Shown piece after piece: positions 10,954 to 33,511 of a stretch of DNA of 42,365 nucleotides (position 1 is its first letter; every line of letters begins with the position of its first letter). Below the pieces are notes generated by a model, which saw nothing but the letters and a program-made list of their open reading frames with translations, searched no databases and was not told the origin of the DNA. Source of the stretch: Gemmatimonadales bacterium. GTDB lineage: Bacteria; Gemmatimonadota; Gemmatimonadetes; Gemmatimonadales; Gemmatimonadaceae. Where the stretch lies: NCBI GenBank assembly GCA_038249795.1, contig JBBSCZ010000001.1, positions 1 through 42,365 on the forward strand. The letters run 5' to 3'. The translations under genes and the position numbers were made by a program.

Positions 10954-11490
10954 GTGATGCGTACTGTGATCGGAGTATCGCTGGCACTGGCGCTGGCGGC
11001 GTGCCGGGGCGAGCAGTCTGGTGCCGCTCCGGCGAGCGCGACGACTTTCGGGCCAGCGGCGGTGGGTGCACCGGCACCGGCGTTCGCCGTGGCGACGCTC
11101 GGCGGTGACTCGCTGCGTGTGGGGGGAAGCGCACGCCAACCCGTCACGCTGGTGAATGTGTGGGCGACGTGGTGCGGGCCGTGCAAGGCCGAGTTTCCCG
11201 AACTGCAGGCGCTGCACACGACGTACGCCCCGCGCGGGTTGCGCGTGGTCGCGATCTCGATCGACACCGATGGCGACGCCGAGGTGGCCGAGAGTGCGAA
11301 GTCGATGGGCGCGACATTTCTGATCGGGCGTGATCCAGCCGATCTGGTGCGCGGTCAGTTTGCGGCGGTGGGCATTCCCGAAAGCTGGCTGATTTCCGCC
11401 GACGGCCGCCTGCTCTGGCGCCACTCCGGCGCGATTCCGTTCGGCGACCGTGCGGTGCGCGCGGCGATCGACAGCGCGCTCGCCGACTGA
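10954..11490 (+). CDS. TlpA family thiol:disulfide oxidoreductase lipoprotein
   Basis: 178 aa with the lipobox LALAAC and the thioredoxin motif VNVWATWCGPCKAEFP. Confidence 0.85.
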   Translation: MMRTVIGVSLALALAACRGEQSGAAPASATTFGPAAVGAPAPAFAVATLGGDSLRVGGSARQPVTLVNVWATWCGPCKAEFPELQALHTTYAPRGLRVVAISIDTDGDAEVAESAKSMGATFLIGRDPADLVRGQFAAVGIPESWLISADGRLLWRHSGAIPFGDRAVRAAIDSALAD

Positions 11491-13454
11491 TGGACGCCCG
11501 GCCCCCGCGCATCACCCCGATGGTATTCGACTCCATTGGCGTCCATGGTCGCGATCTGTCACGGCTGCTCGCGGAAACGATCGAAGCGGCCGTGGTGGCG
11601 ATCGCTCCGGATGGTATCGTCACGTATGCGTCGAGCTTCTTCGAGGAGCTGTTCGGGGCGCCGGTGGCGCACTTCGTCGGCGGGCATTTCACGGCGCTGC
11701 TCTCCGAGAAGGAACGCGCCATCGCCATGTTGCTGCTGGGCGGCATGACGACGGGTGGGCGGTTTCCGATCGCCACCTGGCTGCTCCGGCGCGCCGACCG
11801 TACCGAACTCTGGGTCGAATCACGCGTGACGATCATCCGCGATGGCGATGGCACCGTGACGGGTTACATCACCGTGACGCGCGACATGAGTGAGCGTCGG
11901 CTCGCACAGCAGATGCTCGCCCGCACGCGAGCGAACTATGACGCGCTGGTGCGTCGTGCGGTGTACGGTGTGTATCGTGCCGAGCGCAATCATCGTGTGC
12001 TGGATGCAAATCCTGCGATGATCGAGTTGCTGGGCTACGACACACGCGAGGAGCTCATGGCGCTGGATCTCGCGACCGATGTGTATGCCGACATCGCTGA
12101 TCACGAGTGGATGGTGCGCACGGCGCAGCATGGCGAGCTGGATGACTGGGTGGAAGTCACCTGGCGTCGACGCGATGGGGAGCTGATCGACGTGCGACTG
12201 TCGCTGCGCATGGTGGAGGACGAGGACGGCGGGCCGCCGGTGTTCGAGGGGATCGCCGAGGATGTGACCGAGCGGCATCGCCGCGACGAGCGTCTTCGGC
12301 GCAGTGAGCGCATGGCGTCGCTGGGCCATATGCTGGCCGGCGTGGCGCATGAACTGAACAACCCGCTGGCGGCGATCAGCGGATTTTCACAATTGTTGCT
12401 GCGTGGTTCCTGGTCCGACGACGATCGCAAGGCGCTGGAGACGATCGGCCGCGAGGCGCGACGTGCCGAGCGTGTGGTGGGCGACCTGCTCACGTTCGCA
12501 CGGCAGGGCAACGCGACGCGCAGTGAACTGGTGGATCTGCACGGCGTGATCCGGCACATCGTGGACACGCAGCACTATGCCCTCGACACTCGCGGCGTGC
12601 GTGTGCACCTCGCGCTGACGGCACTGCCGGTGTACGTGCAGGGCGATACGGCGCGCATCGAGCAGGTGATGCTCAACCTCGTCGTGAACGCGCGGCAGGC
12701 GCTCGAGGCGGTGCGCGGAACGCGGGCCCTGGGCCAGCTCCCGCTCGAGTTGCGCATCGTGACCGAAGTGGAGAGTGACGCGTATGTCGTGGTGAAGGTC
12801 GCCGACAATGGCGCCGGCATCTCCCCCGCACTGATCGGACGCATCTGGGACCCGTTCTTCACGACCAAGGAGGAAGGGGTCGGCACGGGACTCGGGCTGA
12901 GCGTGGTACACAGCATCGTCACGGAGCATGGCGGCATGGTGGATGTGCACAGCGAGATGGGACGTGGCACCGAGTTCATGATCCGACTGCCGATGGCGAG
13001 CCTGCCGGGCGAACCGCAAGCGCCCGCAGACATTGGCGACATGCGGCTCCCGGCGGCCCGTGGTGACGCGCCGCCGTCGGGACGCGCGCTGGATATTCTG
13101 GTGGTGGACGACGAGGCCTCGATCATCAGTTTTCTGACCCGCTTCCTCACCTCGCGCGGCCACGCCGTGGTGGCGGCCAGTGACGGGCTGCATGCGCTGC
13201 GGATCGCGGAGCAGTTCACCTTCGACGTGGTGGTGTGCGACCTGCACATGCCGGAGATGGATGGGGTGGAGCTGATCCGGCGGATGCGGATGCTCCCGAG
13301 CTGCGCGCGAACACGCTACGTGCTGAGCTCAGGGGACGGACCCGAGTCGCCCATGATGGCCCGGGCGCAGGCGCTGGGAGTGGACGGGTTGCTGGCCAAG
13401 CCGTACACGATCGACCAGCTGGTGGCAGTGGTGGATGGCAGCCCGTCGCCCTGA
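11490..13454 (+). CDS. cytoplasmic PAS-PAS hybrid sensor histidine kinase / response regulator
   Basis: 654 aa with no TM segment. It has the H-box AGVAHELNNPL, N/G boxes DNGAGI...GTGLGLS, and the receiver ILVVDDEASI...VVCDLHMPEMDG...KP. A TGATG junction links it to tlpA. Confidence 0.85.
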   Translation: MDARPPRITPMVFDSIGVHGRDLSRLLAETIEAAVVAIAPDGIVTYASSFFEELFGAPVAHFVGGHFTALLSEKERAIAMLLLGGMTTGGRFPIATWLLRRADRTELWVESRVTIIRDGDGTVTGYITVTRDMSERRLAQQMLARTRANYDALVRRAVYGVYRAERNHRVLDANPAMIELLGYDTREELMALDLATDVYADIADHEWMVRTAQHGELDDWVEVTWRRRDGELIDVRLSLRMVEDEDGGPPVFEGIAEDVTERHRRDERLRRSERMASLGHMLAGVAHELNNPLAAISGFSQLLLRGSWSDDDRKALETIGREARRAERVVGDLLTFARQGNATRSELVDLHGVIRHIVDTQHYALDTRGVRVHLALTALPVYVQGDTARIEQVMLNLVVNARQALEAVRGTRALGQLPLELRIVTEVESDAYVVVKVADNGAGISPALIGRIWDPFFTTKEEGVGTGLGLSVVHSIVTEHGGMVDVHSEMGRGTEFMIRLPMASLPGEPQAPADIGDMRLPAARGDAPPSGRALDILVVDDEASIISFLTRFLTSRGHAVVAASDGLHALRIAEQFTFDVVVCDLHMPEMDGVELIRRMRMLPSCARTRYVLSSGDGPESPMMARAQALGVDGLLAKPYTIDQLVAVVDGSPSP

Positions 13455-19309: not shown

Positions 19310-21067
19310 CTAGCGCGTCGCCGTACGCGTGAGCAGGCGGAGTACGGGATGGTATTTCCCCATCCGAAGGCGCTCGTCGAAGAGGTTCCAGGTGGTGGCG
19401 CCATCGTTGGACTGCGGTTCCAACAACTGCGCTGCCACCAGCAGCTGGCGCTGCGCGGCAGGGACCCATCGCCAGTCGGGTGAGGGCTTCATGCGCAGGG
19501 CCACCCAGTGTCCGAACAGGCGCACCTCGCGATGGCCCTGGAAGGCGCGCGGCGACCGCTGCACGGAGTCGAGGTAGAACCGTTCCACGCTGAGCGCGGC
19601 GGAGCCGGGCACGCGCGCGCGCACTTCGACACCATGACGGGCGAGGAGCGTGAGCAGGGCGGTGTCGGCGGCTTCGACCAGCCAGCCACCCGGCGGCACG
19701 GTCGTGACGCGGGTGGGATCGAACCGGTCGCGAACCGCCAGGCGCTGCGGCGCGATGCGCCCGGTGCGCCGGAGGCCGGGTGGCACACCGGGCTCCGCCA
19801 ACAGACTGTCGGGATCGGCCTCGAGCGCCTCGACCAGCACGTCATCCTGGCGCGGCGAGGTGGTGAGCTGCGTTTCCAGCACCAGGCCGCGTGCGGCGAT
19901 GCCGGAGGCCAGAGCACGGCGGGTGGCGGTGACGCGGGCGAGGATCGTCGGATCGGCACCAATGGTGCCGAGCAGCTCGCGAATGAAGGCGTCGGTACTG
20001 CGCACGCGCACGCCGAATGGATCGTGCGAGTAGGCCTCGCTGAGCACCGAGACGCCACCGGTGAGTCCGAAGTAGTTGGAGCCGAACCGCGGGCGCGAAT
20101 CGTAGGTGAACCAGCCCTCCTTCTTCGCGTCGAGTGTCACTTCGCGCGCATAGCTGTCGCTGAAGTTGCCGTACGCATACGTCTTCACCCCGCGTTGTTC
20201 GAGCCGGCGCCGGATGCCCGTGAGCAGCGTGTCGCCGGTGAAGGCGGCGAGCGGTGCACCGGGATGCAGCGACGGCGACCAGGTAAGGGAGTAGCCGTGG
20301 TAGCTGCCGTTGGTGGTGTGCAGGTCCACGAACACATCGACGCTGCCATTGGTGAGCATCGGCAGCATGGCGCGCGTTTCAGGCGCTTCGGCCTTGATAT
20401 AGTCGCGATTCAGGTCGAGACCAGCGCCGTTGGCACGCTCACCGATCACGGCCGGGCCAAGTTGCGCCGTGCGATTGCGGGACTGCGGACCGAGCGCCTC
20501 GTTACCATCGGCGTTGTACATCGGGATCACGATCAGCGTGAGGCTGTCGAGCAGATTCGGCTTCGCATCGGTGACGACGGTGCGCAGCAGCGCAAGCACC
20601 GCCTCTTTCCCTTCCACTTCGCCGGCGTGGATGTTGGCTTGCAGCAGCACCACAGGGCGGCGGCGTGGTGCGGCCATCAGCTGGTCGCAGTCGGCGGCGG
20701 TGCGGCTGCTGCGCGCGCAGACCGTCACGGCGATGAGCGGTCGTCCACGCGATGACACACCGAGGCGTGTGAGGCGCATGATCCGGTTCGGTGCGGCCTT
20801 GAGACGCACCGTGTCCAGAAAGGCCATCGCCTCCTCGTACGACGTGGTCTCGCAGAATCCGGTGCGTTCGGCGCGCGTCGCCGGTGACGGCATCGGTGAC
20901 GGCAGGTCGGGTGCGCAGCGCCAGGCCGGTGCGCGACGTGGCGCCGTGCGCACGGCCTCGCCTGCGATACGCTGTCGCTCGGACGCGTCATTGGAAACAG
21001 GCTGACGCGCGGTGGAGCACGCGGCAAGGGTCACGACCGCACTGAGCACCACACCGACAGTCTTCAC
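19310..21067 (-). CDS. M14 family zinc carboxypeptidase (lipoprotein)
   Basis: Motifs: NIHAGEVEGKEA (HxxE), NADGNE, GLDLNRDY, VDLHTTNG. A GTG at 21067 gives VKTVGVVLSAVVTLAAC, a lipobox. The start is uncertain. Confidence 0.75.
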   Translation of the reverse strand: MKTVGVVLSAVVTLAACSTARQPVSNDASERQRIAGEAVRTAPRRAPAWRCAPDLPSPMPSPATRAERTGFCETTSYEEAMAFLDTVRLKAAPNRIMRLTRLGVSSRGRPLIAVTVCARSSRTAADCDQLMAAPRRRPVVLLQANIHAGEVEGKEAVLALLRTVVTDAKPNLLDSLTLIVIPMYNADGNEALGPQSRNRTAQLGPAVIGERANGAGLDLNRDYIKAEAPETRAMLPMLTNGSVDVFVDLHTTNGSYHGYSLTWSPSLHPGAPLAAFTGDTLLTGIRRRLEQRGVKTYAYGNFSDSYAREVTLDAKKEGWFTYDSRPRFGSNYFGLTGGVSVLSEAYSHDPFGVRVRSTDAFIRELLGTIGADPTILARVTATRRALASGIAARGLVLETQLTTSPRQDDVLVEALEADPDSLLAEPGVPPGLRRTGRIAPQRLAVRDRFDPTRVTTVPPGGWLVEAADTALLTLLARHGVEVRARVPGSAALSVERFYLDSVQRSPRAFQGHREVRLFGHWVALRMKPSPDWRWVPAAQRQLLVAAQLLEPQSNDGATTWNLFDERLRMGKYHPVLRLLTRTATR

Positions 21068-21167
21068 AGGTTCTCGCGGAGGAAGCAGATAAGTGACTCG
21101 TACAGTTGCGGCTCGGTTTTTCCGCCGCCGCCCTCGCAGCTGCGATACATGACCGGCGAGCCTGCCG

Positions 21168-21578
21168 TCAGGGAGCGGGCCGCGCCGGCATGCGGCGGCC
21201 TTCACCTTCGAGACGGAAGACCGCGATCGGTGAGCGCCACGCCGTGGAATCACGGTCGCGGTACGCGGTGACGAACCATCGATAATTCTGCGACAGCGAG
21301 TATTCGAAGTTCGCCGGGATCACCACCTGGGTGTCGGTCGTGACCGCAGTGAAGATCGGGACTTCGATGGAGTCGGAGAGAACCACCTCGTACCGGGACG
21401 CTCCGGCGGCCGGGTGCCAGCTGATCAGGCGGTCACCTACCTTGACGTATCCCACGGGCGACGCGAGGGCGACGGTGAGTCCCTCCCTGCCGCGCACCAG
21501 GGTCGCAGCGGCATCGCTCGCCGGCTTGCAGGCGGCGAGCAGCGTGAGGAGCACGATCGTGAGCGGCAGACGGGGCAT
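21168..21578 (-). CDS. lipoprotein with a beta-rich 'ASRY' domain, paralogous to the anti-sigma ectodomain
   Basis: 136 aa with the lipobox LLTLLAAC. ISWHPAAGASRYEVVLSD...PIFTAVTTDT...YRWFVTAY aligns with residues of the 24874-25602 product. Confidence 0.55.
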   Translation of the reverse strand: MPRLPLTIVLLTLLAACKPASDAAATLVRGREGLTVALASPVGYVKVGDRLISWHPAAGASRYEVVLSDSIEVPIFTAVTTDTQVVIPANFEYSLSQNYRWFVTAYRDRDSTAWRSPIAVFRLEGEGRRMPARPAP

Positions 21579-21759
21579 CAGCGGCGACCAGGTTCTTGAA
21601 ACGTGAGCGTGGAGAATGAGCCAGTCCGACGACCGGACGCAGCATCATGATGGCAATCTGCAAGATACCGAATCGCGGCTGGTATCCGATGCCCGGCCCG
21701 GAGTCGCGCGCCTGCTCGGGAGGGGTGCCCGCCTGAACGCTCCATACATTATCAGGATC

Positions 21760-24570
21760 ATGCGATCCCTCCCCGGCATCCTGGCTGCGATGGTACTTCC
21801 CGTGACGATCGGTGCCCAGTCGGCGGCCGATGTGCGGGCACTCGACACGCTGCCGCCGCGCGCATTGCCGGTGCTGGCGCAGCGGGCCAACGCCACGAAT
21901 CGCGTGCCGATGCAGGAAGCGGCCTGGCGTCGCTGGGCGGTTGCGGCGCCGCAATCTCCGGCGCCGCGGCTCGCACTGGCAGCGTTGACCCGCACCGACC
22001 TCCGGTACGACGAGGGGCAGGCGTGGGTCGACAGCGCCGCGCGACTGGTCACCACGCCGCTGTGGCGTGCGGCCGTGGCGCGCGAGCGGATCGCAATGCG
22101 GATGGTGCGCGGCGAGTACACGGGAGTGGACTCGATGGTGCGCGCTCTCTCCTCCGACACTGCCGGCCTGCCGGCCAGCGAGCAGGCCGAGATGCTGTAT
22201 CTGCGCATGGCTCAGGCGCGACGCACGGCGCGGCCGGTGACGATGGCGACCATCGACACGATCGCCACGTTCACCGCGCCGGGTGATTCCGCGATGCGCG
22301 CGCGACTGCATTGTTTCCGCGCGATGACCGATCCACAGCGCGCCGAGATGCATGCTGATTCGTCCGTCGCCATCGCAATGGCCACCGGCATACCCATGAT
22401 TGCTGCCAGCTGCCAGTTGATGCTCGGTAGGATATTTATCGGCATCGGTGACATGCAGCGGGCAGCGCGCTGGCTGCAGCGCGCCGAGACGACCAGCCGC
22501 GCGGCGCACGACGACCCGACGCTCGCCCTCACGTTGCAGTGGCGCGGGAGTCTGGAACGGACGCTGGGCGATGTGCCGGACGCGCGGCGCTGGTACACCG
22601 AGTCGATCCGCGTGGCGCAGCGCAGCAACAACCGCAACGTCGAGGCGTGGTCGCTGCTGGGGCTGGCCACGACGGCTCGCGCGGTCGGCGACGCGAGCTC
22701 CGCCACCAGTGCCTTGAACCGGGCGGTGATGCTCTTCGAGGCGACCGGCGATGTCATCGGCGTGATGAATGCCCGACTCGAGCAGGCGCAGGCACAGATC
22801 CTGGTGCGTGATCTGGATGGAGCGGAGCAGCTGGCGCGAGCGCTGCGCACGCAGGCACAGGCGCGCGCGGACGACAGCGCCACGCTGCGCGCGATCTACC
22901 TGCTGGCCGACATCGCGATGCGACGCGGCCGGCTCGAGGAGTGCGCGACGCTGCTCGACGCGGCCGAGCCGCACATCGAGACGCTGGGTGCGGCGTGGCG
23001 TACACAGCTCATCGAGTATCGCGGCATGCTGGCGCAGCGGAATGGCGAGAGCGCCCGCGCCATCGCAACGCTCACCGATGTGCGGAAATTGTATTCGAGC
23101 AAGCAGGATCTGTATCTGCACAACATCGACGGTGCACTGGCGCTGGCATGGCTCGACGCGGGGGACACGGCGCGCTCCGCGACACTGCTGGATGAATCGA
23201 GTCGCCATCTGGACGCCGTGCGTGATACACTCGCCGTGGCAGGACTCCGAAAGGTGGTGGGTGCGCTCGACAACTGGGGTGGAACGAGCGGCAACATCGA
23301 TGAGGCGATGGCGGCATTCGTGACATCGCCGCGCTGGCTGCCGACGGTCTTCATGGTGACCGAGCGTTCCCGGGCCCGCGCACTGCTCTCCGGCGCGGTG
23401 GCGAACGAGGCCGACACGAGCTCGGTGGAAATCGGGGCGGCACGCCGGCGGGTGCGGGCGAGTTCGACGGTGCTGGCCGAGGTGCAGCGTGCCATGAAGC
23501 CGAATACGGCGATGCTGATCTACGCGGGCGGCCATGCGCGTGCGCGCACGTCGATGATGCTCGTGACGCGCACCACGGCGCGCGGCTTCACCCTCGCGCC
23601 GCTCGATTCACTGGACAGCGACATCGTGCGTTGGCTGGCATTGCTGGAGAGTGGTGAGTCTGGTGCCGGAGCCGGCCGTCGCGTGGCCAAGTCCGTACTC
23701 GGCAACGCGCTGCGCTCACTGCCGTCGAGCATACGCCGTCTCGTCATCGTACCACATGGCCCGCTGTACCGGGTGCCGTTTCAGGCATTGCCCATTGGCG
23801 CGGGGGTGCTCGGCGATCGCGTAGTGGTCACGATTTCGCCGTCGGTGTCGCTGGCGATGGCATATGCGGCCGATCCGCGCACCGCGCCAGCGCGGGTGCT
23901 GGCCTTGGGAGCCGGCGACACGCAGGTGCAGAGCGGCACGCCGCAATCGCTGGAACTGCTGGTGGAGCGCACGTCGCGCAGTGATCCACTGGCGCCGCTG
24001 CTGGCGGCCGGCGACGAGGCGCGTGCCGCAGCACGCTGGGCAGCCGGTTCGCTGGCACTGACGGGCGAACTCGCCTCCGAGTCTGCGCTGAAGCGCGAGG
24101 CGCGCAGCGCGTACACGGTACTGCATGCCGCAGCGCATGCCCTGACGAGCGATCAGGCGCTGGGCGCCAACTACCTCATCCTGCGGGCCGACGGGGTGGA
24201 CGACGGCTACGTCTCGGGTGGTGAACTGGCCACGCTCAGTCAGGGGATGTCGATGGTGGTGCTGTCGGGGTGCCGCACCACGGGCGACTTCGGCTCGCGC
24301 GGCGACGCCGTGGACGGCCTCGTGGCGCCGCTGCTCGCGCGCGGCGTGCGCACGGTCATCGCCAGCCACTGGGCGGTGAGCGATCGGTGGACGAGCGTGC
24401 TGATGGAACGCTTCTATCAGCGCCTCGCCGCCGGCGCCAGCACGGCCGACGCGATGAACGACGCACAGGCATCCTTGCGTCGTGCCGGTGTGCCGGCGCG
24501 CTTCTGGGCCGCGTTCAGCGTGATCGGCGACGGCTCCCTGTCGTTCACGCCGGCCGCTGTGCCCAGATAG
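21760..24570 (+). CDS. secreted TPR-repeat CHAT-domain (caspase-like) protease
   Basis: ATG at 21760 gives the signal peptide MRSLPGILAAMVLPVTIGAQS. About 600 aa of TPR-like helical repeats follow. The C-terminal CHAT domain has IVPHGPLYRVPFQAL, LHAAAHA (His) and VVLSGCRTTG (Cys). Confidence 0.85.
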   Translation: MRSLPGILAAMVLPVTIGAQSAADVRALDTLPPRALPVLAQRANATNRVPMQEAAWRRWAVAAPQSPAPRLALAALTRTDLRYDEGQAWVDSAARLVTTPLWRAAVARERIAMRMVRGEYTGVDSMVRALSSDTAGLPASEQAEMLYLRMAQARRTARPVTMATIDTIATFTAPGDSAMRARLHCFRAMTDPQRAEMHADSSVAIAMATGIPMIAASCQLMLGRIFIGIGDMQRAARWLQRAETTSRAAHDDPTLALTLQWRGSLERTLGDVPDARRWYTESIRVAQRSNNRNVEAWSLLGLATTARAVGDASSATSALNRAVMLFEATGDVIGVMNARLEQAQAQILVRDLDGAEQLARALRTQAQARADDSATLRAIYLLADIAMRRGRLEECATLLDAAEPHIETLGAAWRTQLIEYRGMLAQRNGESARAIATLTDVRKLYSSKQDLYLHNIDGALALAWLDAGDTARSATLLDESSRHLDAVRDTLAVAGLRKVVGALDNWGGTSGNIDEAMAAFVTSPRWLPTVFMVTERSRARALLSGAVANEADTSSVEIGAARRRVRASSTVLAEVQRAMKPNTAMLIYAGGHARARTSMMLVTRTTARGFTLAPLDSLDSDIVRWLALLESGESGAGAGRRVAKSVLGNALRSLPSSIRRLVIVPHGPLYRVPFQALPIGAGVLGDRVVVTISPSVSLAMAYAADPRTAPARVLALGAGDTQVQSGTPQSLELLVERTSRSDPLAPLLAAGDEARAAARWAAGSLALTGELASESALKREARSAYTVLHAAAHALTSDQALGANYLILRADGVDDGYVSGGELATLSQGMSMVVLSGCRTTGDFGSRGDAVDGLVAPLLARGVRTVIASHWAVSDRWTSVLMERFYQRLAAGASTADAMNDAQASLRRAGVPARFWAAFSVIGDGSLSFTPAAVPR

Positions 24571-24590
24571 CTGGACCGGGACTCCGGCGT

Positions 24591-24862
24591 GCTGCGAACT
24601 GCCACGGCGAACTGCAACTGCAACTGAAAAACTGCAACTGCAACACCCCTCACACGGAGCCGCGGATACACGGAGGGTTCTTGCATCAGGCAACCGTCGG
24701 TGCAAGGCAGAAGTCGAGAACGGCTTTGGGAACTGCGCTCGTGAAACGCTGTTCCCAAAGCATTTTGCAGTTTCTCCGTGCTTCCGCGGCTCCGTGTGAG
24801 GGGTGTTGCAGTTGCAGTTGCTGTTCGCAGTTGAGCAGTTGAGCAGTTGCAGTTGCTGTTCA
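24591..24862. repeat. long inverted-repeat element (37-bp perfect arms, 116-bp spacer, nested 11-bp hairpin)
   Basis: 24630-24666 is the exact reverse complement of 24783-24819. The outer flanks are imperfect (C/G)AACTG hexamer runs. The inner hairpin pairs 24723-24733 with 24751-24761. Confidence 0.85.
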
Positions 24863-24873
24863 CCGCCTGAGAG

Positions 24874-25602
24874 CTATCGGACGATGAGCTTCTCGACGCG
24901 GGAGCGGATCTCGGAGCCGTCGGGGGCGCGGGAGCGGACCCACCAGCGATAGACGCCGGAGCGGAGGGTGCCACGCGGGACGAGGGCAGAGGTGGCGTTG
25001 GTCTCGGTCGCAAAGACCGGATCGTCATTGGCGTCGAGGATCTCGACGCGATAGCGCGACGCCGTCTGGATCCCCTTCCAGGCCAGCGTGATCGGCGCGA
25101 CCGCGGAGGCCGGCGGCACGCTCAGCAGCTCGACGGCTGATCCCGCAGCGCGCACCTGGTCAGCAGCGGGGGGCAGCGTGAACACGTACCAGCTCGTACC
25201 CGCGACGAGAGTCAGCGAGGCGGCGAGCAGGACCGGCTTCAATATCGACTTGAGCCGTCGACGCCGGTCGGCGGTGGGGGTGGGCGCGAAGGCGAGTGAG
25301 ACCGCGCGCGGCAGCGGCGCGCCAGAGACATTCGAGGCAGCATCGGGGCTCGACGATCGGGCCGCGACGAGATGAGCGAGTGTGACGATGCCGTCCTGGC
25401 TGCCAAGCAGCTGCTCGATGACGGTGAGCTGGGCCTCATCGGCAGCCAGGTCCTCGATCAGCAGGTCGGTCGCCTCATCGCCGGGGAGCGGCTCGGGTGA
25501 CGACACACGACGCAATTCCTCGGCATGCGTGAACGCATCGCGGAGCGACGCGGGCACGGACCCGGGATCAAGCGGCAGCGGCTCATGTTCCGGACTGATC
25601 AT
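24874..25602 (-). CDS. putative anti-sigma factor (single-pass, periplasmic beta-rich domain)
   Basis: 242 aa with a 4-nt overlap with the ECF sigma gene. It has one TM helix (ILKPVLLAASLTLVAGTSWYVF) and no HxxxCxxC. The call rests on position and topology only. Confidence 0.5.
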   Translation of the reverse strand: MISPEHEPLPLDPGSVPASLRDAFTHAEELRRVSSPEPLPGDEATDLLIEDLAADEAQLTVIEQLLGSQDGIVTLAHLVAARSSSPDAASNVSGAPLPRAVSLAFAPTPTADRRRRLKSILKPVLLAASLTLVAGTSWYVFTLPPAADQVRAAGSAVELLSVPPASAVAPITLAWKGIQTASRYRVEILDANDDPVFATETNATSALVPRGTLRSGVYRWWVRSRAPDGSEIRSRVEKLIVR

Positions 25603-26186
25603 TTCTCACTCCCCCATTCAATCCCGCGCGCAACCAGATAGCCACGGAGATCAGACAAACCACGGTACAGCAGATTCCGGGTCTTGGCCTCACTCCAACC
25701 GAGGAGCGCCTCGATCTCATCGCGGCGAAATCCCTCGAGGTGCAGTTTGACCACAGTCCGGCGAGACAGCCCCAACGATTTCACGCCGGCCTGAACGACG
25801 ATGCCAAGCGATGCCGCCTCTGCGTCGGCGTCGGGTCCCGGCCCTGGAGCGGGTAACGGGAGATCCTCGACCGGGTCGTGCATTGCAGCGCGGCGGCGAC
25901 GGCGCAGCAGATCCAGAATCGCAGTCGTGACCACGCGTTGCAGATAAGACGCAGAAAGCTTCGTGATGTTCTCAGGGTTTCCGCACACCCGCCACAAACG
26001 GATGCGGACTTCCTGCTCAGCCTCCCCGATGTCACTGGGTGGAAGCCGGTAGCGGGCCCCAGTGGCGCGAATTGAGCCCGAAAAGCGCCGAACGATTTCA
26101 TCCAGCAACAGGGAGAGCTGCCGGTCGTCTGGTGGCGCATCGTCGCCGGACTCGTCCTGTGCCCCCCCGCCCGGTCTGCGGATCAC
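25599..26186 (-). CDS. ECF-type RNA polymerase sigma factor
   Basis: 195 aa. It has a region 2-like segment (EQEVRIRLWRV...YLQRVVTTAILDLLRRRRR) and a region 4 HTH (RRDEIEALLGWSEAKTRNLLYRGLSDLR). The GTG start overlaps the fadJ stop. Confidence 0.8.
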   Translation of the reverse strand: MIRRPGGGAQDESGDDAPPDDRQLSLLLDEIVRRFSGSIRATGARYRLPPSDIGEAEQEVRIRLWRVCGNPENITKLSASYLQRVVTTAILDLLRRRRRAAMHDPVEDLPLPAPGPGPDADAEAASLGIVVQAGVKSLGLSRRTVVKLHLEGFRRDEIEALLGWSEAKTRNLLYRGLSDLRGYLVARGIEWGSEK

Positions 26187-28351
26187 ACCGGCTTCCCCGT
26201 GGCTGGATGAAACCGCTCACCATTCGCAGCCATGTCACGCAGGCTCCCGGCAGCCTGATAGCGCCCCGGGAACTCGCGCTCCAGCGTATCCAGCGTCGCC
26301 ACCACAGCGGCGGCACCGGTGCGGTCGATGAAGCGGAACGGCCCGCCACGGAATGGCGGAAATCCGATGCCGAAGACCGCGCCGATGTCGCCGTCACGCG
26401 CTGAGCGGAGAATTCCATCCTCGAGACAGAGCACCGCCTCGTTGAGCATGGCATACACGCAACGCTGCACGATTCGCGCCGCACTTTCGGTGCTGCGCTT
26501 CTGGCCGGTGGGCAGCAGATCGTACACGCTGCTGTCGACGCCGCCCTTCTTGCCGGCATCGTCGTATTGGTAGAAGCCGCGCTTGCCCTTCCGTCCCAGA
26601 CGACCGGCGCGGATCACACGCGGTATCGACTCATTCGGCGCCATTCGTGCGCCGAAGGCTTCCGCGACGATCACACCGGCCTTCGAGGCGACGTCGAGCC
26701 CGACCTCGTCCACCAGCGTGATCGGCCCCACGGGGAAGCCGAACTTCACCAGCGCCTCATCGATCGCCTCGATGCTCACCCCTTCGTCGAGCAGCAGACC
26801 GGCCGCGTTCACGTAGGGCGCCAGCATCCGGTTGGCGTAGAAGCCCGGCCCGTCCCGCACCACGATCACCGTCTTGCCGAGCTTCCGTCCATAGGCCACC
26901 GCGCTCACCACCACCTCGGGATCGTTGCCCGGGTGCGTGATGATCTCGAGCAGCGGCATCTTGTGCACCGGCGAGAAGAAATGCATGCCGAGCACCCGCT
27001 CGGGACGCGCACTGACACTGGCGATGCGGCTGATCGGGATGGTACTGGTGTTGCTGGCGACGATCGCGCGCGGCGGCACCACTGCCTCGATCTCACGCAG
27101 CACCTGATGCTTCACCTGCAGGTCCTCGAACACGGCCTCGATGACCATGTCGACGCTGCCGAAGCCGGAGTAGTCGGTGGTGCCGCTGACGTTGAGCAGC
27201 AGGTCGTCGAACTGCGGGCGCGTGACCTGCTTCTTCACCAGCTTCTCGCGCATCACCTCACGCACGGCGGCCAGTCCCTTCGCCACGCGCGAGACGTCGG
27301 CGTCCTTCAGGCGCACGATGGTCCCGGCCGCACTGGCCACACTGGCGATGCCGGCGCCCATGAACCCCGCGCCGAGAATGCCAAGCCGCGACACCGGCAG
27401 CTGTTTTGGTAGATTTTCGATACCATCTACACCCTGGTCGCGCTTGAGCGCCGTGGTGGCGAAGAACAGGAACACCAGCTCCTGCGATTCGGGCGTCATG
27501 GCGAGCTCGCCGAAGAGGCGCGCCTCGGTCTGGTAGCCGTCGCCATCGCTGCCGTAGCCGGCGGCCACGGCGTCGAGCGCGGCGAGGGGCGCGGGATAGA
27601 GCCCCTTCGTCTTGGCCAGCACCCCTTCCTTCGCCTTCCGGAACACGATCGCGCGCCCGATCGGATTCTCGTCGAGCAGCATCTCGCTGGCCCCCTTCTG
27701 CTTCGCCTCTCGGCGACGGGTACCGGCGGCCAGTTCCTGCGCACGCTGCATTGCGACGCGGCGCAGGATGCTCGGATGCACCATCTCATCGACGAGGCCA
27801 AGCTGCAGCGCCTTCTTCGCCCGGACGGTCTTGCCGGTGAGAATCATGTCGAGCGCCGCCTGCAGGCCGATCAGCGCCGGGAGCCGCTGCGTGCCGCCGG
27901 CACCGGGAATGAGGCCGAGCTGCACCTCCGGAAGCGAGATGGCAGTCTTCGGACTGTCGGTGGCAATCCGCCAGTGCGTCGCCAGCGCCAGCTCGGTACC
28001 TCCGCCCAGGCAGCCGCCATGAATGGCACAGACCACCGGCTTGCCATCAGCCATGGCCTGAAATGCGGCGTGTCCGGAGCGCGAGGCCTGTTCGGCATCA
28101 GCGGCGGTCCGGAACGAGAGAAAGGCCTCGATGTCGGCGCCGGCGATGAAGTTGTCACGCTTGCCGCTGATCATGACCACGGCCTTGATGGCGGGATCAC
28201 GCTGAATGCTCGCGAACGCGTCGCGCAGCTCGTCCTGTGCCGAAGCGGTGAGCACGTTCACCGGCGAGCCCGGCAGGTCGATGGTGAGCACGGCAATGCC
28301 GTTCTCGACCTGCATGGTGATCGCGCGCTGGGAAGTTTCGGGTGCGGTCAT
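26183..28351 (-). CDS. fadJ: fatty-acid oxidation complex alpha subunit (enoyl-CoA hydratase / 3-hydroxyacyl-CoA dehydrogenase)
   Basis: 722 aa. The N-terminal crotonase has FIAGADI and GGCLGGGTELALA. The central domain has the NAD motif LGILGAGFMGAGIA. The thiolase-first gene order matches fadI-fadJ. Confidence 0.9.
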   Translation of the reverse strand: MTAPETSQRAITMQVENGIAVLTIDLPGSPVNVLTASAQDELRDAFASIQRDPAIKAVVMISGKRDNFIAGADIEAFLSFRTAADAEQASRSGHAAFQAMADGKPVVCAIHGGCLGGGTELALATHWRIATDSPKTAISLPEVQLGLIPGAGGTQRLPALIGLQAALDMILTGKTVRAKKALQLGLVDEMVHPSILRRVAMQRAQELAAGTRRREAKQKGASEMLLDENPIGRAIVFRKAKEGVLAKTKGLYPAPLAALDAVAAGYGSDGDGYQTEARLFGELAMTPESQELVFLFFATTALKRDQGVDGIENLPKQLPVSRLGILGAGFMGAGIASVASAAGTIVRLKDADVSRVAKGLAAVREVMREKLVKKQVTRPQFDDLLLNVSGTTDYSGFGSVDMVIEAVFEDLQVKHQVLREIEAVVPPRAIVASNTSTIPISRIASVSARPERVLGMHFFSPVHKMPLLEIITHPGNDPEVVVSAVAYGRKLGKTVIVVRDGPGFYANRMLAPYVNAAGLLLDEGVSIEAIDEALVKFGFPVGPITLVDEVGLDVASKAGVIVAEAFGARMAPNESIPRVIRAGRLGRKGKRGFYQYDDAGKKGGVDSSVYDLLPTGQKRSTESAARIVQRCVYAMLNEAVLCLEDGILRSARDGDIGAVFGIGFPPFRGGPFRFIDRTGAAAVVATLDTLEREFPGRYQAAGSLRDMAANGERFHPATGKPV

Positions 28352-28368: not shown

Positions 28369-29670
28369 TCAGGCGCGTTCGATGACCATCGCAAAGCCGA
28401 GCCCGCCTGCGGCGCAGACCGTCAGCAGGCCGAACTGGCCACCGCGCCGGGTCAGTTCGTTGCAGAGCGTGGTCGTGATGCGTGCCCCGGTGGCACCGAA
28501 CGGGTGGCCGATCGCGAGCGAGCCGCCCATCACGTTCAACCTGGCGCGGTCGACTTCACCAACCGGCTTCGACAACCCGGCGCGCTCCGCCCACATCTGA
28601 CTCTCGAAGCCGCGCAGGTTGCTGAGCACCTGCGCGGCGAACGCCTCGTGCATCTCGATCAGGTCGATGTCGCCCAGCGTCAGTCCGGCGCGTGCCAGTG
28701 CCCTGGGCGCCGCGATGACGGGTGCCTGCAGCAACTGTTCCCCCGGATCCACCGCTGCGGTGGCGTAGCTGCGGATGAAGCCGATCGGCTGATATCCAAG
28801 CGCCGCCGCCTTTTCCTCGCTCATCAGGAGCAGGGCGCCGGCGCCATCGGTCAGCGGTGAAGCGTTACCGGCGGTGACGGTGCCGTAGCGCTTGTCGAAG
28901 ACCGGCTTCAGCGCGGCAAGCGCCTCGAGTGAGCTGTCCTCGCGCACACCGTTGTCGGTCGTGGCGATCTTGTCGTACTTCGGCGGCACGTAGACCGGAA
29001 ACATCTCGGCCGACAGACGCCCGTCGCGCAGTCCGGCGGCAGCGAGACGATGCGAACGAAGCGCAAAATCATCCTGCTCCTCCCGGGTGATGCCATTGAG
29101 CTTCGCCATCTTCTCGGCGCTCTGCCCCATGCTCTCGCCGGTGGTCGGTTCGGCGATCGCCGGAGCCACCGGCACCAGATCCTTCGGGCGCACCTTGGAG
29201 AAGGCGCTGAACTTCTGGGTGATGCTGCGGGCCTTGTTGGCAGCCATCAGCACATCCGTGAAGCCGGGCGAATGCAGGATCGGCACGTTGGACAGCGACT
29301 CCGCACCGCCGGCAATCACGCAATCCATCTGGCCCAGCGCGATCTGGTCGGCCGCATCGGCAATGGCCTGGTTGGCACTGGCACAGGCGCGACTCACGCT
29401 CCAGGCATCGACCGTCTTGCCGAGCAGTGGCATCAGCGAGACCTCGCGGGCGATGTTCGGCGCCTGCACGCTTTGCACGACGGTACCGAAGACGACCGCG
29501 TCGACGTCGGATCCGTTGAGATTCGTGCGCTGTATCAGCTCGGCGACGCAGAGTCGGCCCAGCTCGATGGCGGAGAGCGACTTGAAAAGCGTGCCGGCCT
29601 TGCTGAACGGGGTTCGAACTCCCGTAACGATGGCCACGCGACGCAGCAATGCATGCGATGTCATCATCAT
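28369..29670 (-). CDS. fadI: acetyl-CoA C-acyltransferase (thiolase)
   Basis: 433 aa. It has VSRACASANQA (active-site Cys), NGGSLAIGHPFGATG-like MGGSLAIGHPFGATGAR, and CAAGGLG. Confidence 0.9.
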   Translation of the reverse strand: MMMTSHALLRRVAIVTGVRTPFSKAGTLFKSLSAIELGRLCVAELIQRTNLNGSDVDAVVFGTVVQSVQAPNIAREVSLMPLLGKTVDAWSVSRACASANQAIADAADQIALGQMDCVIAGGAESLSNVPILHSPGFTDVLMAANKARSITQKFSAFSKVRPKDLVPVAPAIAEPTTGESMGQSAEKMAKLNGITREEQDDFALRSHRLAAAGLRDGRLSAEMFPVYVPPKYDKIATTDNGVREDSSLEALAALKPVFDKRYGTVTAGNASPLTDGAGALLLMSEEKAAALGYQPIGFIRSYATAAVDPGEQLLQAPVIAAPRALARAGLTLGDIDLIEMHEAFAAQVLSNLRGFESQMWAERAGLSKPVGEVDRARLNVMGGSLAIGHPFGATGARITTTLCNELTRRGGQFGLLTVCAAGGLGFAMVIERA

Positions 29671-31423: not shown

Positions 31424-33511
31424 TCAGCGCCTTTCGTCGCCGAGTCGCGGAGCGTCGGTCAGCTCTCGATTCAAAAGCGTCACATGGCGCCGAGCCGTCG
31501 CGACCAGCTCCGCGATTTCAAAAGGCTTCTCGAGCATTTCGTTGGACACTCCCGCGAGAAAATCACGCACCGCGTCACGCGTCGCGCCCGCCGTCACGAA
31601 GACGAAGCGATCGGCGAGTACCGGATACCGTTCCTTCACGCGCTGATACAGCTCGGCGCCGGTGATGTGCGGCATCATGATGTCGCTGAACACCACGTCG
31701 AACGTCTGATCACTGAAGAGGATGCGTTCCGCCTCTCTCGAGTCACTGACCGCCGTCACGTCGTGCTCGCGCGACAGTGCGCGTCGCATGATCGAGCGCA
31801 CGGCGGCATCGTCATCGACGATCAGGATTCGTCCACGCCGCCCACCGACCGGGATGGTGACCGCTGGCCACTGCTCGTCCAGATCCCGTGCCACCTGCAA
31901 CGTGACGTGGAAGGTTGCGCCGGCGCCGGGCGTCGACGCGACGGTCAGCTCACCACCAAGTGCCACGACGATCCCGCGTGACACCGCCAATCCAAGGCCG
32001 GTGCCTTCGCCGACGGGTTTGGTGGTGAAGAATGGATCGAAGATACGTGCGAGCAGGTCCGCAGGAATTCCGGGGCCGTTGTCGACCACGGAGAGCTGCA
32101 CACGATCGCCAGCGAGGCAGCGCCCTTCGATGGTGACACGATTGGCGTCCGGGTCAGCGCGCTCGAAGGCCTGCGCTGCGTTGACGAGCAGGTTCACCAG
32201 CACCTGCGTCAGTCGCGATTCGTCACCAAGTACCGGCGGCAACCCGCCGAGATCGACACGCACCGTGGCCTTCTGCCGCAGCTCGTGGATCGCCATGCTG
32301 ATCGAGGTATCGGCAACGGCTTCGAGATCGATGGCGTGCAGCGCGAAGTCCTCGCGCGCGAGTGAGCGAAGCGCACGCACGATCCGACGAATGCGCTCGG
32401 TGCCGACCTTGGCCTCGCCGAGCATCTCGAGCAGGTCGCGCATCCGCGCGGAGGGGGACGGCCCGGCAAGCGTGCGCAGCTCCTCGAGCGCCAAATCGAT
32501 GTTGCCCATCACGAACGCCAGCGGGTTGTTGATCTCATGACCCACACCGGCAACCAGCGTACCGGTCATCACCAGGCGGTCCTGCTGTGCCAGTCGCTCA
32601 CCGGCCCGCCGGATCTCCGACACGTCGCGAAAGGTCGTCACCACCTCGAGTGCGCCGCCATCAACGGTGCGCATCGGGATCGAGTTGATCCGGAGCCAGG
32701 TGAGCTCGCCGGATGGCTTGTACAAACCCATGAGCACGTTCTGTTGGTCTACACCTGTGTGCAGCGCACGCATCACCGGATGCTCGTCAGTCGGAAACGG
32801 TGTGCCATCCTCACGAACCGTCCGCCATGACGGCGCCAGCGAGGACCGGCCGCGGAGATGTTCATCGGTCAGCCCGAGGATCGCGGATGCGGCACGGTTG
32901 TTCGTGACGATGTGGCCCGATGCATTCTGGACGACCACGCCTTCGGCCATGGCGTCGAACAGGACACTGAGCTGTGCGACTGCCGCGCGTGCTGCCGCTT
33001 CGTCGGCGAGCGCGCGCATGCGCATCCGTCGCTTCTCGAGCAGATACACGACCTGCTTCCCGAGGCGTTCGAGTGCATCGAGCTGGCCTGGTGTCGCGTT
33101 TCGCGGCACGACATCGATCGCGCACAGGGTTCCGATGCTGAAGCCCTCAGGTGTCCGCAACGGCGTACCCGCATAGAAGCGAACGCCCGGCTCGCCAATG
33201 ACGAGCGGATCGTCGGCAAACCGGCTGTCCGCCAGCGCGTCGGGGATGACGAGCGCCTGATCGTCCCTCATGGCGTGATCGCAGAACGACACGCTTCGCG
33301 GCAGCTCGGACATTTCGATCCCGACGCGCGCCTTGAACCACTGACGATCCACGTCGACGAGCGAAATCAGCGCGATCGGTGCCTGAAAGATGTGGGCCGC
33401 GATCTGCGCCAGATCATCGAACGCCTCCTCCATGGGAGTGTCGAGCACCGCGAACGAGTAAAGCGATGCGAGCCGCTCGACTTCGTTGGCAGGAATGTCA
33501 GGGATCTTCAT
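31424..33511 (-). CDS. cytoplasmic GAF-PAS hybrid sensor histidine kinase / response regulator
   Basis: 695 aa with an N-terminal GAF. It has the H-box GVGHEINNPLAF, DNGPGIP...GTGLGLAVS, and the receiver ILIVDDDAAV...FSDIMMPHITG...KP. Confidence 0.85.
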   Translation of the reverse strand: MKIPDIPANEVERLASLYSFAVLDTPMEEAFDDLAQIAAHIFQAPIALISLVDVDRQWFKARVGIEMSELPRSVSFCDHAMRDDQALVIPDALADSRFADDPLVIGEPGVRFYAGTPLRTPEGFSIGTLCAIDVVPRNATPGQLDALERLGKQVVYLLEKRRMRMRALADEAAARAAVAQLSVLFDAMAEGVVVQNASGHIVTNNRAASAILGLTDEHLRGRSSLAPSWRTVREDGTPFPTDEHPVMRALHTGVDQQNVLMGLYKPSGELTWLRINSIPMRTVDGGALEVVTTFRDVSEIRRAGERLAQQDRLVMTGTLVAGVGHEINNPLAFVMGNIDLALEELRTLAGPSPSARMRDLLEMLGEAKVGTERIRRIVRALRSLAREDFALHAIDLEAVADTSISMAIHELRQKATVRVDLGGLPPVLGDESRLTQVLVNLLVNAAQAFERADPDANRVTIEGRCLAGDRVQLSVVDNGPGIPADLLARIFDPFFTTKPVGEGTGLGLAVSRGIVVALGGELTVASTPGAGATFHVTLQVARDLDEQWPAVTIPVGGRRGRILIVDDDAAVRSIMRRALSREHDVTAVSDSREAERILFSDQTFDVVFSDIMMPHITGAELYQRVKERYPVLADRFVFVTAGATRDAVRDFLAGVSNEMLEKPFEIAELVATARRHVTLLNRELTDAPRLGDERR

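Follow-up and report, generated by a model that had tools for sequence, protein, structure and literature searches.

Gating of a sigma factor of the extracytoplasmic function (ECF) type by a CHAT protease is an already known concept (DdvA, 2024; Csx29). In the DdvA-DdvS pair of Myxococcus xanthus, an ECF sigma factor is accompanied by a transmembrane zinc-binding anti-sigma (ZAS) factor with a fused periplasmic TPR-CHAT part (PMC11506125, PMC6061681), and its authors proposed that, on a signal, CHAT cleaves itself in trans within the dimer and that this autoproteolysis is the site-1 step ahead of RseP (PMC11506125); the fused type has been reported only from Myxococcota and one Comamonas (PMC11506125). 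In type III-E CRISPR, the cytoplasmic TPR-CHAT protein Csx29 cleaves Csx30 and so relieves the inhibition of the ECF-like CASP-sigma (PMC10028731), and a type III-B cascade joins SAVED-CHAT, PCaspase and a sigma factor (bioRxiv 10.1101/2023.06.23.546230). Here we analyzed a stretch of 42,365 nucleotides from a Gemmatimonadales bacterium (assembly GCA_038249795.1, contig JBBSCZ010000001.1, positions 1 to 42,365, forward strand; hereafter the window), in which a TPR-CHAT protein is encoded beside an ECF sigma factor and its anti-sigma factor. The module is probably a two-protein, split version of the fused DdvA system. The mechanism we favour, to which we give about an even chance, is that the CHAT protein acts in trans in the periplasm as the site-1 protease of a ZAS-derived anti-sigma factor, making a three-protein envelope signalling module.

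Five genes make up the region 19310-26186 of the window, where the anti-sigma/sigma pair converges on the CHAT gene. The three that concern the module are:

21760-24570, plus strand: TPR-CHAT protein, 936 aa (Pfam CHAT and TPR families, AlphaFold, Foldseek)
24874-25602, minus strand: anti-sigma factor, 242 aa (ATGA overlap, HxxxCxxC of the homologues, AlphaFold topology)
25599-26186, minus strand: ECF-type sigma factor, 195 aa (profile matches, SigE alignment)

An earlier description made by a model from the letters alone (the sequence-only reading) had called here a TPR-like protein with a C-terminal CHAT domain, a cleavable-looking signal peptide and a caspase-type His/Cys dyad. It had further called an ECF sigma gene that overlaps by 4 nt the gene of a single-pass membrane protein lacking the zinc motif, and, divergent from CHAT, a lipoprotein gene followed by that of an M14 carboxypeptidase lipoprotein. 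These sequence-level statements all hold (Pfam and NCBIfam scans, BLASTP and sequence reading); the evidence for each is given below.

In a one-genome-per-species scan with the CHAT alignment, 432 relatives were confirmed, and the best 80 were almost all from Gemmatimonadota. The nearest group of CHAT homologues (56-90% identity) came without exception from Gemmatimonadota/Gemmatimonadaceae metagenome-assembled genomes or from soil metagenomes, and below them identity fell sharply to 30-38%. For the linkage analysis 18 close genome loci (the window's clade) and 62 distant ones (~30% CHAT identity) were used, and hidden Markov models (HMMs) built for the sigma factor, the 242-aa protein, the lipoprotein and the CHAT domain were run on the six-frame open reading frames of all loci. 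The same sigma/anti-sigma pair was convergent just downstream of CHAT in 17 of the 18 close loci. The same sigma (E 1e-43 to 1e-67 to the HMM) and anti-sigma families were present within 7 kb in 44 of the 62 distant ones (36 convergent downstream, five upstream divergent and three downstream tandem), while four of the 18 distant negatives were cut by contig ends. A reverse search of the JGI metagenome collection, using a sigma alignment headed by a distant member, returned 80 loci: CHAT stood beside the pair in about 40 of them, most of the others were 1-3 kb long and too short to judge, and the clear sigma-side exceptions were a near-identical group (L087-L091 and L099, hereafter the L089 group) and L161. 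Altogether the trio was found in more than 100 independent loci. The sigma family lies within 7 kb of CHAT in about three quarters of the loci and in three arrangements, which is not chance.

Synteny within the window's own clade extends over the entire region and takes in the housekeeping genes RsgA, ProDH, fadB, thiolase and GlpD-like, so that linkage there alone is no proof of function; this synteny would suit the explanation that the genes are neighbours by inheritance only and functionally unrelated. However, the linkage persists at ~30% CHAT identity, amid unrelated flanks (in L003 the module lies between heme-biosynthesis genes and a NAGPA gene, not the window's neighbours), in three arrangements and reciprocally from the sigma side, which ties CHAT functionally to the pair and leaves inherited synteny as a hardly credible account. 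The CHAT protein, the anti-sigma factor and the sigma factor probably constitute one signalling switch in Gemmatimonadota. The sequence-only reading had supposed a neighbourhood of four genes conserved as a unit: its CHAT/sigma/anti-sigma part is borne out across close and distant relatives, whereas the lipoprotein and the M14 peptidase drop out of it, co-occurring with the trio in the window's clade only.

The 936-aa protein carries a C-terminal CHAT domain (PF12770 over residues 646-924 and profile positions 11-289 of 289; E=9.2e-46, with 157 bits where the cut-off is 24) behind a TPR-like body (Pfam TPR_MalT and TPR_12 matches over residues 258-479). Its start had been placed correctly at 21760, where the homologues also begin; a longer start at ATG 21616, back to which the reading frame is open, was rejected because the homologue N-termini align with 21760. 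The AlphaFold model (predicted local distance difference test (pLDDT) 85.7, predicted template modelling score (pTM) 0.79) shows a long TPR superhelix at ~residues 22-580 (~28 helices over 22-578) followed by an alpha/beta, caspase-like CHAT domain at ~580-936. The top Foldseek matches of this model were human separase (9hn0, E=1.8e-12), DdvA (2.9e-12) and Csx29 (8eey, 5.2e-12), the DdvA structures 8rw5 and 8rot matching at E about 3e-12 with TM 0.43-0.45 both ways. A PDB sequence search with the CHAT protein returned generic TPR matches only and no detectable sequence similarity to DdvA, so the DdvA relation is visible at the fold level only. As modelled, the protein is of the separase/Csx29/DdvA TPR-CHAT architecture, its overall fold matching the solved members. 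The residues of the dyad come after strands 787-791 and 832-836 of the model and are invariant across 57 aligned family members, which suggests that the CHAT protein is catalytically competent:

24124-24138, plus strand: catalytic His region, H789 and H793 in LHAAAHA
24271-24273, plus strand: catalytic Cys codon, C838 in VVLSGCRT

A three-helix motif by which the active site is completed is present in separase and craspase, not in DdvA.

Where the protease would sit can be read from both of its ends. The N-terminus, in which a basic residue is followed by ~16 residues of hydrophobic core and then by an A-x-A-like end, looks like a Sec signal peptide:

21760-21822, plus strand: signal-peptide-like N-terminus, residues 1-21, MRSLPGILAAMVLPVTIGAQS (read from the sequence, homologue pattern, low pLDDT)

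The same pattern recurs in the CHAT homologues, and residues 1-21 (pLDDT <50) are the sole long low-confidence N-terminal stretch of the CHAT model. At the other end, 42 of 59 distant CHAT relatives possess a transmembrane (TM) helix (a ~20-residue hydrophobic segment; Kyte-Doolittle) with an Arg-rich tail, whereas the CHATs of the window's clade have no C-terminal anchor. An N-terminal export signal together with a C-terminal anchor whose positive tail is cytoplasmic puts the TPR-CHAT body in the periplasm. The extracytoplasmic placement in the sequence-only reading is therefore supported, the protein being predicted as soluble in the window's clade and as C-terminally membrane-anchored in most relatives. 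In one distant subclade the CHATs end in a short Trp-rich tail (RGLFGWTWWR), others in the TM helix plus Arg-rich tail (L025-L036, L037-L086).

The profile scores of the 195-aa protein were just below the Pfam and NCBIfam cut-offs (Sigma70_r2 21.0 bits against 24, r4_2 21.8 against 25.7, TIGR02937 40.8 against 42.9). By phmmer it aligned over residues 24-187 to Mycobacterium tuberculosis SigE structures (E=1.3e-13), and its orthologue in L003 gave r2 and r4_2 domain matches; the motifs QEVRIRLWR and GWSEAKTRNLLYRGL are conserved in the family. On these similarities the product of 25599-26186 (minus strand) is accepted as an ECF sigma factor. Neither CHAT nor Gemmatimonadetes comes up in the main text of the ECF classification paper by Casas-Pastor et al. 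2021.

The sigma stop codon overlaps the ATG of the anti-sigma gene as ATGA (4 nt), and this order, with the anti-sigma gene directly downstream, is kept in related loci. The 242-aa anti-sigma factor had no Pfam, NCBIfam or PDB sequence match, and a search of PDB with its family profile was also empty. The zinc motif HxxxCxxC is missing from the window's protein, as it is from all 20 anti-sigma factors of the window's clade (the window plus 19 relatives), whereas 42 of 44 distant-clade partners carry it at the aligned N-terminal position (e.g. HVMSCADC), which marks the family as ZAS-derived class-I anti-sigma factors. By this alignment the zinc ligands were lost only in the window's clade, whose protein is ZAS-descended and not zinc-binding by the HxxxCxxC motif. 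An AlphaFold model based on a 47-sequence alignment contains, in order, four N-terminal helices (18-33, 42-49, 55-66 and 69-84; pLDDT only 60-78), a disordered stretch, one TM helix, a low-confidence linker and a beta sandwich. The single predicted TM helix agrees with the single-pass topology first read from the sequence. The features of the membrane and periplasmic part are:

25198-25272, minus strand: TM helix, residues 111-135, with RRRR before it on the cytoplasmic side (AlphaFold; R113, A127 and A128 conserved)
25150-25161, minus strand: juxtamembrane D-Q-V-R, residues 148-151, candidate cleavage site (alignment of 63 anti-sigma factors)
24877-25140, minus strand: divergent periplasmic fibronectin type III (Fn3) domain, residues 155-242 (AlphaFold, Foldseek and fn3-repeat profile matches)

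The last of these had been named the ASRY domain in the sequence-only reading; it is a divergent Fn3 domain. It was modelled as a seven-strand beta sandwich (residues 171-241, pLDDT about 90), for which Foldseek returned Fn3/Ig-like matches with an Fn3 TM of 0.6 on the target. A HMMER search with the anti-sigma profile among 1.84 billion representatives (50% clustering) found 334 proteins at E<=1e-10, a count that includes Fn3-repeat proteins matched via the ectodomain: the set comprises proteins of ~200-250 aa with the same layout and giants with 5-19 tandem copies of the C-terminal domain. Pfam identifies these copies as fn3 (PF00041), while the window's anti-sigma factor itself has no direct Pfam match. 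The giant Fn3-repeat proteins (P0268, P0273, P0348 and others) are 700-4356 aa long, and some bear the type IX sorting domain Por_Secre_tail.

Within the otherwise variable periplasmic linker, R151 is conserved in 62 of 63 anti-sigma factors. Its distance past the TM helix is 13-16 residues, in most cases an acidic residue stands 3-4 positions ahead of it, and the motif around it is usually [D/E]-x-[V/M/T]-R-[G/A]. From this alignment we infer that R151 may be the site of CHAT cleavage.

Cleavage of this kind has parallels in several systems. The DegS/RseA/RseP/sigmaE and the Prc/CtpA-dependent FecR-type systems work by regulated intramembrane proteolysis, in which site-1 trimming precedes site-2; separase is a eukaryotic TPR-like/CHAT protease that cuts after Arg in ExxR. 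Like DegS/RseA/RseP, the module has a single-pass anti-sigma factor whose periplasmic domain of ~100 residues would be trimmed first, by a protease that would sense an envelope cue; unlike DegS and Prc, the candidate enzyme belongs to the cysteine proteases of clan CD and would sense through its TPR part, instead of being a PDZ serine protease, and it is encoded beside the pair. Separase is its best Foldseek match and has a site that the [D/E]xxR linker motif resembles, but the two have no sequence relation beyond the CHAT domain. With the self-cleaving, non-enzymatic anti-sigma factor RsgI of Firmicutes (PMC10328401) the module would share ectodomain proteolysis as the transmembrane signalling step; unlike RsgI, it has a dedicated protease gene as partner.

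The closest counterpart remains DdvA. DdvA-DdvS combines an ECF sigma factor, an N-terminal ZAS-type domain, a single TM helix and a periplasmic TPR-CHAT part with a His/Cys dyad, the same parts are predicted for the module, and in both a CHAT cut in the juxtamembrane linker is proposed to come ahead of RseP cleavage. Unlike in DdvA, the TPR-CHAT part of the module is separate (secreted or C-terminally anchored) and the anti-sigma factor has a small Fn3 ectodomain of its own: the two are encoded by two genes on opposite strands, and all 61 sigma-linked genome loci are split likewise. Further differences are the missing zinc motif in the window's clade, the lack of a defence island nearby and the phylum, Gemmatimonadota. 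As in Craspase, a TPR-CHAT protein would act in trans on the inhibitor of an ECF-like sigma factor, and the fold matches 8eey (E=5e-12); unlike the module, Craspase is cytoplasmic and RNA-guided via Cas7-11, Csx30 is soluble and unrelated to ZAS, and the window contains no CRISPR components.

For this module we infer binding, cleavage, cleavage site, signal and regulon, in a sequence of steps that would run as follows: i) the ECF sigma factor would be held at the inner membrane by the single-pass class-I anti-sigma factor, whose periplasmic part would be a short linker plus the small Fn3 domain; ii) the TPR superhelix would sense a periplasmic cue and/or dock the Fn3 domain; iii) the His/Cys site would cut the juxtamembrane linker, most likely after the Arg of [D/E]xxR, leaving a stub of ~15 residues; iv) this site-1 cut would license intramembrane (RseP-type) and cytoplasmic proteolysis, by which the sigma factor would be released. 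From what is known of RseA, DegS and RseP, the stub left by a cut at R151 would be short enough for an RseP-type protease. No site-2 protease gene was seen among the larger open reading frames of the window, to which the search was confined.

RseB protects RseA from the site-1 protease, and a comparable role can be imagined for the CHAT protein. The TPR-CHAT protein would then bind the Fn3 ectodomain and modulate it without cutting, as an RseB-like protector or a ligand-sensing co-receptor, its protease activity being aimed at itself or at other envelope proteins. We consider this unlikely, yet it draws on the same conserved linkage as the site-1 mechanism, and a long TPR superhelix is a protein-binding scaffold; furthermore, the bulky TPR-CHAT part of DdvA keeps RseP from gaining access, and cleavage that depends on CHAT was not observed there (PMC11506125). 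The subtilase found in the equivalent position in L161 points the same way, since other proteases can evidently occupy the place of CHAT. The family-wide invariance of the His/Cys dyad, however, argues for catalysis, and a near-invariant Arg within an otherwise variable linker also speaks against a partner that does not cut.

Several other observations weigh against the favoured site-1 mechanism: i) the CHAT-dependent step of DdvA was not demonstrated, and in the resting state its dyad mutants did not differ from wild type (PMC11506125); ii) the signal-peptide and TM calls are based on simple hydrophobicity; iii) the conservation of R151 may be structural, as it borders the Fn3 domain and the lipoprotein divergent from CHAT has the same xVRG; iv) CHAT paralogues occur without an adjacent sigma gene at about 14 of 58 informative loci; v) sigma/anti-sigma pairs without an adjacent CHAT exist (the L089 group and L161), and such pairs keep the [D/E]xxR linker motif; vi) although CHAT and sigma distances were correlated (Mantel test, r=0.91, p=0.001), their co-evolution was rejected as independent evidence, because species phylogeny alone would give such a value and nearest neighbours agreed in only 7 of 23 cases.

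Some genomes hold two to three CHAT paralogues (L008/L010, L044/L061/L086, L053/L066/L077, L047/L068 and L055/L067), some of them without an adjacent pair, and cross-talk, or partners encoded in trans, is possible among paralogues and orphan pairs. In L161 (9100-16023) a subtilase (Peptidase_S8) lies convergent downstream of the pair that is without CHAT, along with two unknown proteins and a TonB-dependent receptor that bears an STN signalling domain; in the position of CHAT, these may represent another protease or sensor partner.

The regions upstream of the genes bear on how such a switch would be controlled. A -10-like hexamer precedes the CHAT gene:

21745-21750, plus strand: TACATT, 9 nt before the ATG of the CHAT gene (sequence reading; conserved among close relatives)

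The close relatives keep (C)ATACATT-N8-10-ATG, a spacing that suggests a leaderless or very short-leader CHAT transcript. Among the distant-clade sigma genes, TAnnnT was found 5-10 nt before an in-frame start in 31 of 44 (versus 1.4% of control windows) and, in 13 of these 44 in addition, TTGnnn 16-18 nt further upstream (versus 0.1% of controls); the CHAT upstream regions, inspected by eye, show the same housekeeping-type TTGnnn-N17-TAnnnT or TACATT near the start. No dyad or k-mer above shuffles, as expected of an ECF-type autoregulatory promoter, was found upstream of 44 non-redundant sigma genes, and a consensus promoter/terminator scan of 21000-26500 found nothing. Judged by these motifs, transcription of both the CHAT gene and the sigma operon looks constitutive, from promoters of housekeeping type that are leaderless or nearly so. 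In the window's clade the GTG start of the sigma gene overlaps the stop codon of the fadB-like gene as GTGA (26183-26186), which suggests that the pair is co-transcribed with thiolase and fadB (beta-oxidation); here the fadB-like gene (26183-28351) follows the thiolase gene (28369-29670). The distant-clade pairs have their own promoter instead of the co-transcription with fadB.

If the promoters are constitutive as they look, control would be post-translational, and a post-translational switch fits this better than CHAT as an output of the sigma factor. In that other explanation, which we regard as quite improbable, CHAT would be an effector of the sigma regulon, e.g. a periplasmic stress protease, and adjacency would reflect a shared function. 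ECF sigma genes do often adjoin their targets, and the CHAT gene is a separate, convergent transcription unit; but housekeeping-type elements lie close to the CHAT start codons, and the sigma upstream regions have no ECF-type motif in common (for CHAT this comparison was by eye only).

Divergent from CHAT lie the genes of two lipoproteins, in the order given by the sequence-only reading:

21168-21578, minus strand: 136-aa lipoprotein with an Fn3 domain (lipobox LLAAC), a member of the divergent peptidase operon
19310-21067, minus strand: M14 zinc carboxypeptidase lipoprotein (PF00246, E=3.7e-18; start read from the sequence), a neighbour only

In the translation of the 136-aa protein the Cys of the lipobox is conserved in the homologues, and in the M14 peptidase the lipobox TLAAC follows a probable GTG start at 21067. 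The 136-aa lipoprotein is, as had been claimed, paralogous to the anti-sigma ectodomain, with which it shares 31% identity over 98 residues (BLASTP, E=4e-6). That this likeness is generic Fn3 similarity was rejected, because the lipoprotein-family HMM scored a median of 30 bits on anti-sigma-sized proteins versus 12 on generic Fn3 repeat proteins, as expected of a specific Fn3 relation. Members of the lipoprotein family occur in the window's clade only, in about 90 clusters, all of them unnamed and with identities of at least 47%, and at the same loci the lipoprotein is 68-76% identical versus 49-63% for the anti-sigma factor. Its C-terminal tail RLEGEGRRMPxxPxP (21168-21190 in the window) is nearly invariant, more so than the rest of the protein.

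In the relatives, the operon divergent from CHAT consists of a beta-lactamase-fold gene, the lipoprotein gene (4-nt overlap), S9, M14 and ProDH. Both the beta-lactamase-fold gene and the S9 gene have been lost from the window, where what is left of the former's 3' end, CCTGGTCGCCGCTGATG, precedes the lipoprotein gene (21579-21700; compared with L013, L019 and L169). The lipoprotein is thus a clade-specific member of a peptidase operon; since its paralogous domain is preceded by the same motif as in the anti-sigma factor, it may take part in the signalling module, although that link is unproven. As a tentative and somewhat doubtful extension of the site-1 mechanism, a stand-alone caspase/separase-like protease would cut after the Arg of [D/E]xxR when its TPR domain has sensed an envelope cue and, in the window's clade, the Fn3 lipoprotein would be a decoy or second substrate that couples lipoprotein/peptide turnover to sigma release. 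A role of the Fn3 lipoprotein as second substrate, decoy or co-sensor is speculation.

The gene content around the module also bears on whether it regulates antiviral defence, as DdvS/DdvA does, turning on a defence island upon encounter with phage. This parallel stems from the control of a CBASS (cyclic oligonucleotide-based antiphage signalling system)/CRISPR island by DdvA/DdvS (PMC11506125) and from the CRISPR association of the other CHAT-sigma pairings (PMC10028731; bioRxiv 10.1101/2023.06.23.546230). In the window, however, a PADLOC search for defence genes gave no model match for any of the four proteins; the neighbours are housekeeping metabolism (fadB, thiolase, ProDH, RsgA and GlpD-like), elsewhere the flanks are variable metabolism, and no CRISPR/cas genes were seen, all of which makes a defence regulator very improbable here. 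Two hybrid histidine kinases (PAS or GAF, HisKA, HATPase, receiver) are encoded at 11490-13454 and 31424-33511 and are unrelated to the module.

Between the convergent CHAT and anti-sigma genes lies a window-specific insertion:

24571-24873, no strand assigned: 303-nt palindromic spacer

It is an imperfect palindrome whose 46-nt arms show 96% complementarity, with GCAACTGCAAC repeats on the outside and a hairpin within; it occurs in a single copy in the window, and its RNA fold was predicted at -184.6 kcal/mol (z=-14). The spacer had no Rfam match, and none of the 170 related loci contains it. Its appearance is that of a lineage-specific insertion resembling a miniature inverted-repeat transposable element (MITE) or a repetitive extragenic palindrome (REP), or of a bidirectional terminator, outside the conserved module. 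Distant-clade CHAT and anti-sigma genes often run into each other at their 3' ends, with overlaps of up to 84 nt.

No description of the split form (exported TPR-CHAT, anti-sigma factor with an Fn3 ectodomain, housekeeping context, Gemmatimonadota) was found in the literature searched. The structure of DdvA, a dimeric protein that contains both protease and substrate and for which no activating signal is known, raised the question whether a periplasmic CHAT can act as the site-1 protease of an anti-sigma factor. With protease and anti-sigma factor as separate genes, the hypothesis put forward for DdvA becomes directly testable in trans. Furthermore, TPR-CHAT proteins are paired with ECF sigma factors elsewhere than in CRISPR loci and the phage-defence islands of Myxococcota: the module, probably a signalling device, is widespread on the chromosomes of a major soil phylum that has been little studied, and defines an uncharacterised anti-sigma family. 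If the site-1 mechanism in its extended form is true, it would offer the first case in which regulated intramembrane proteolysis driven by CHAT can be demonstrated.

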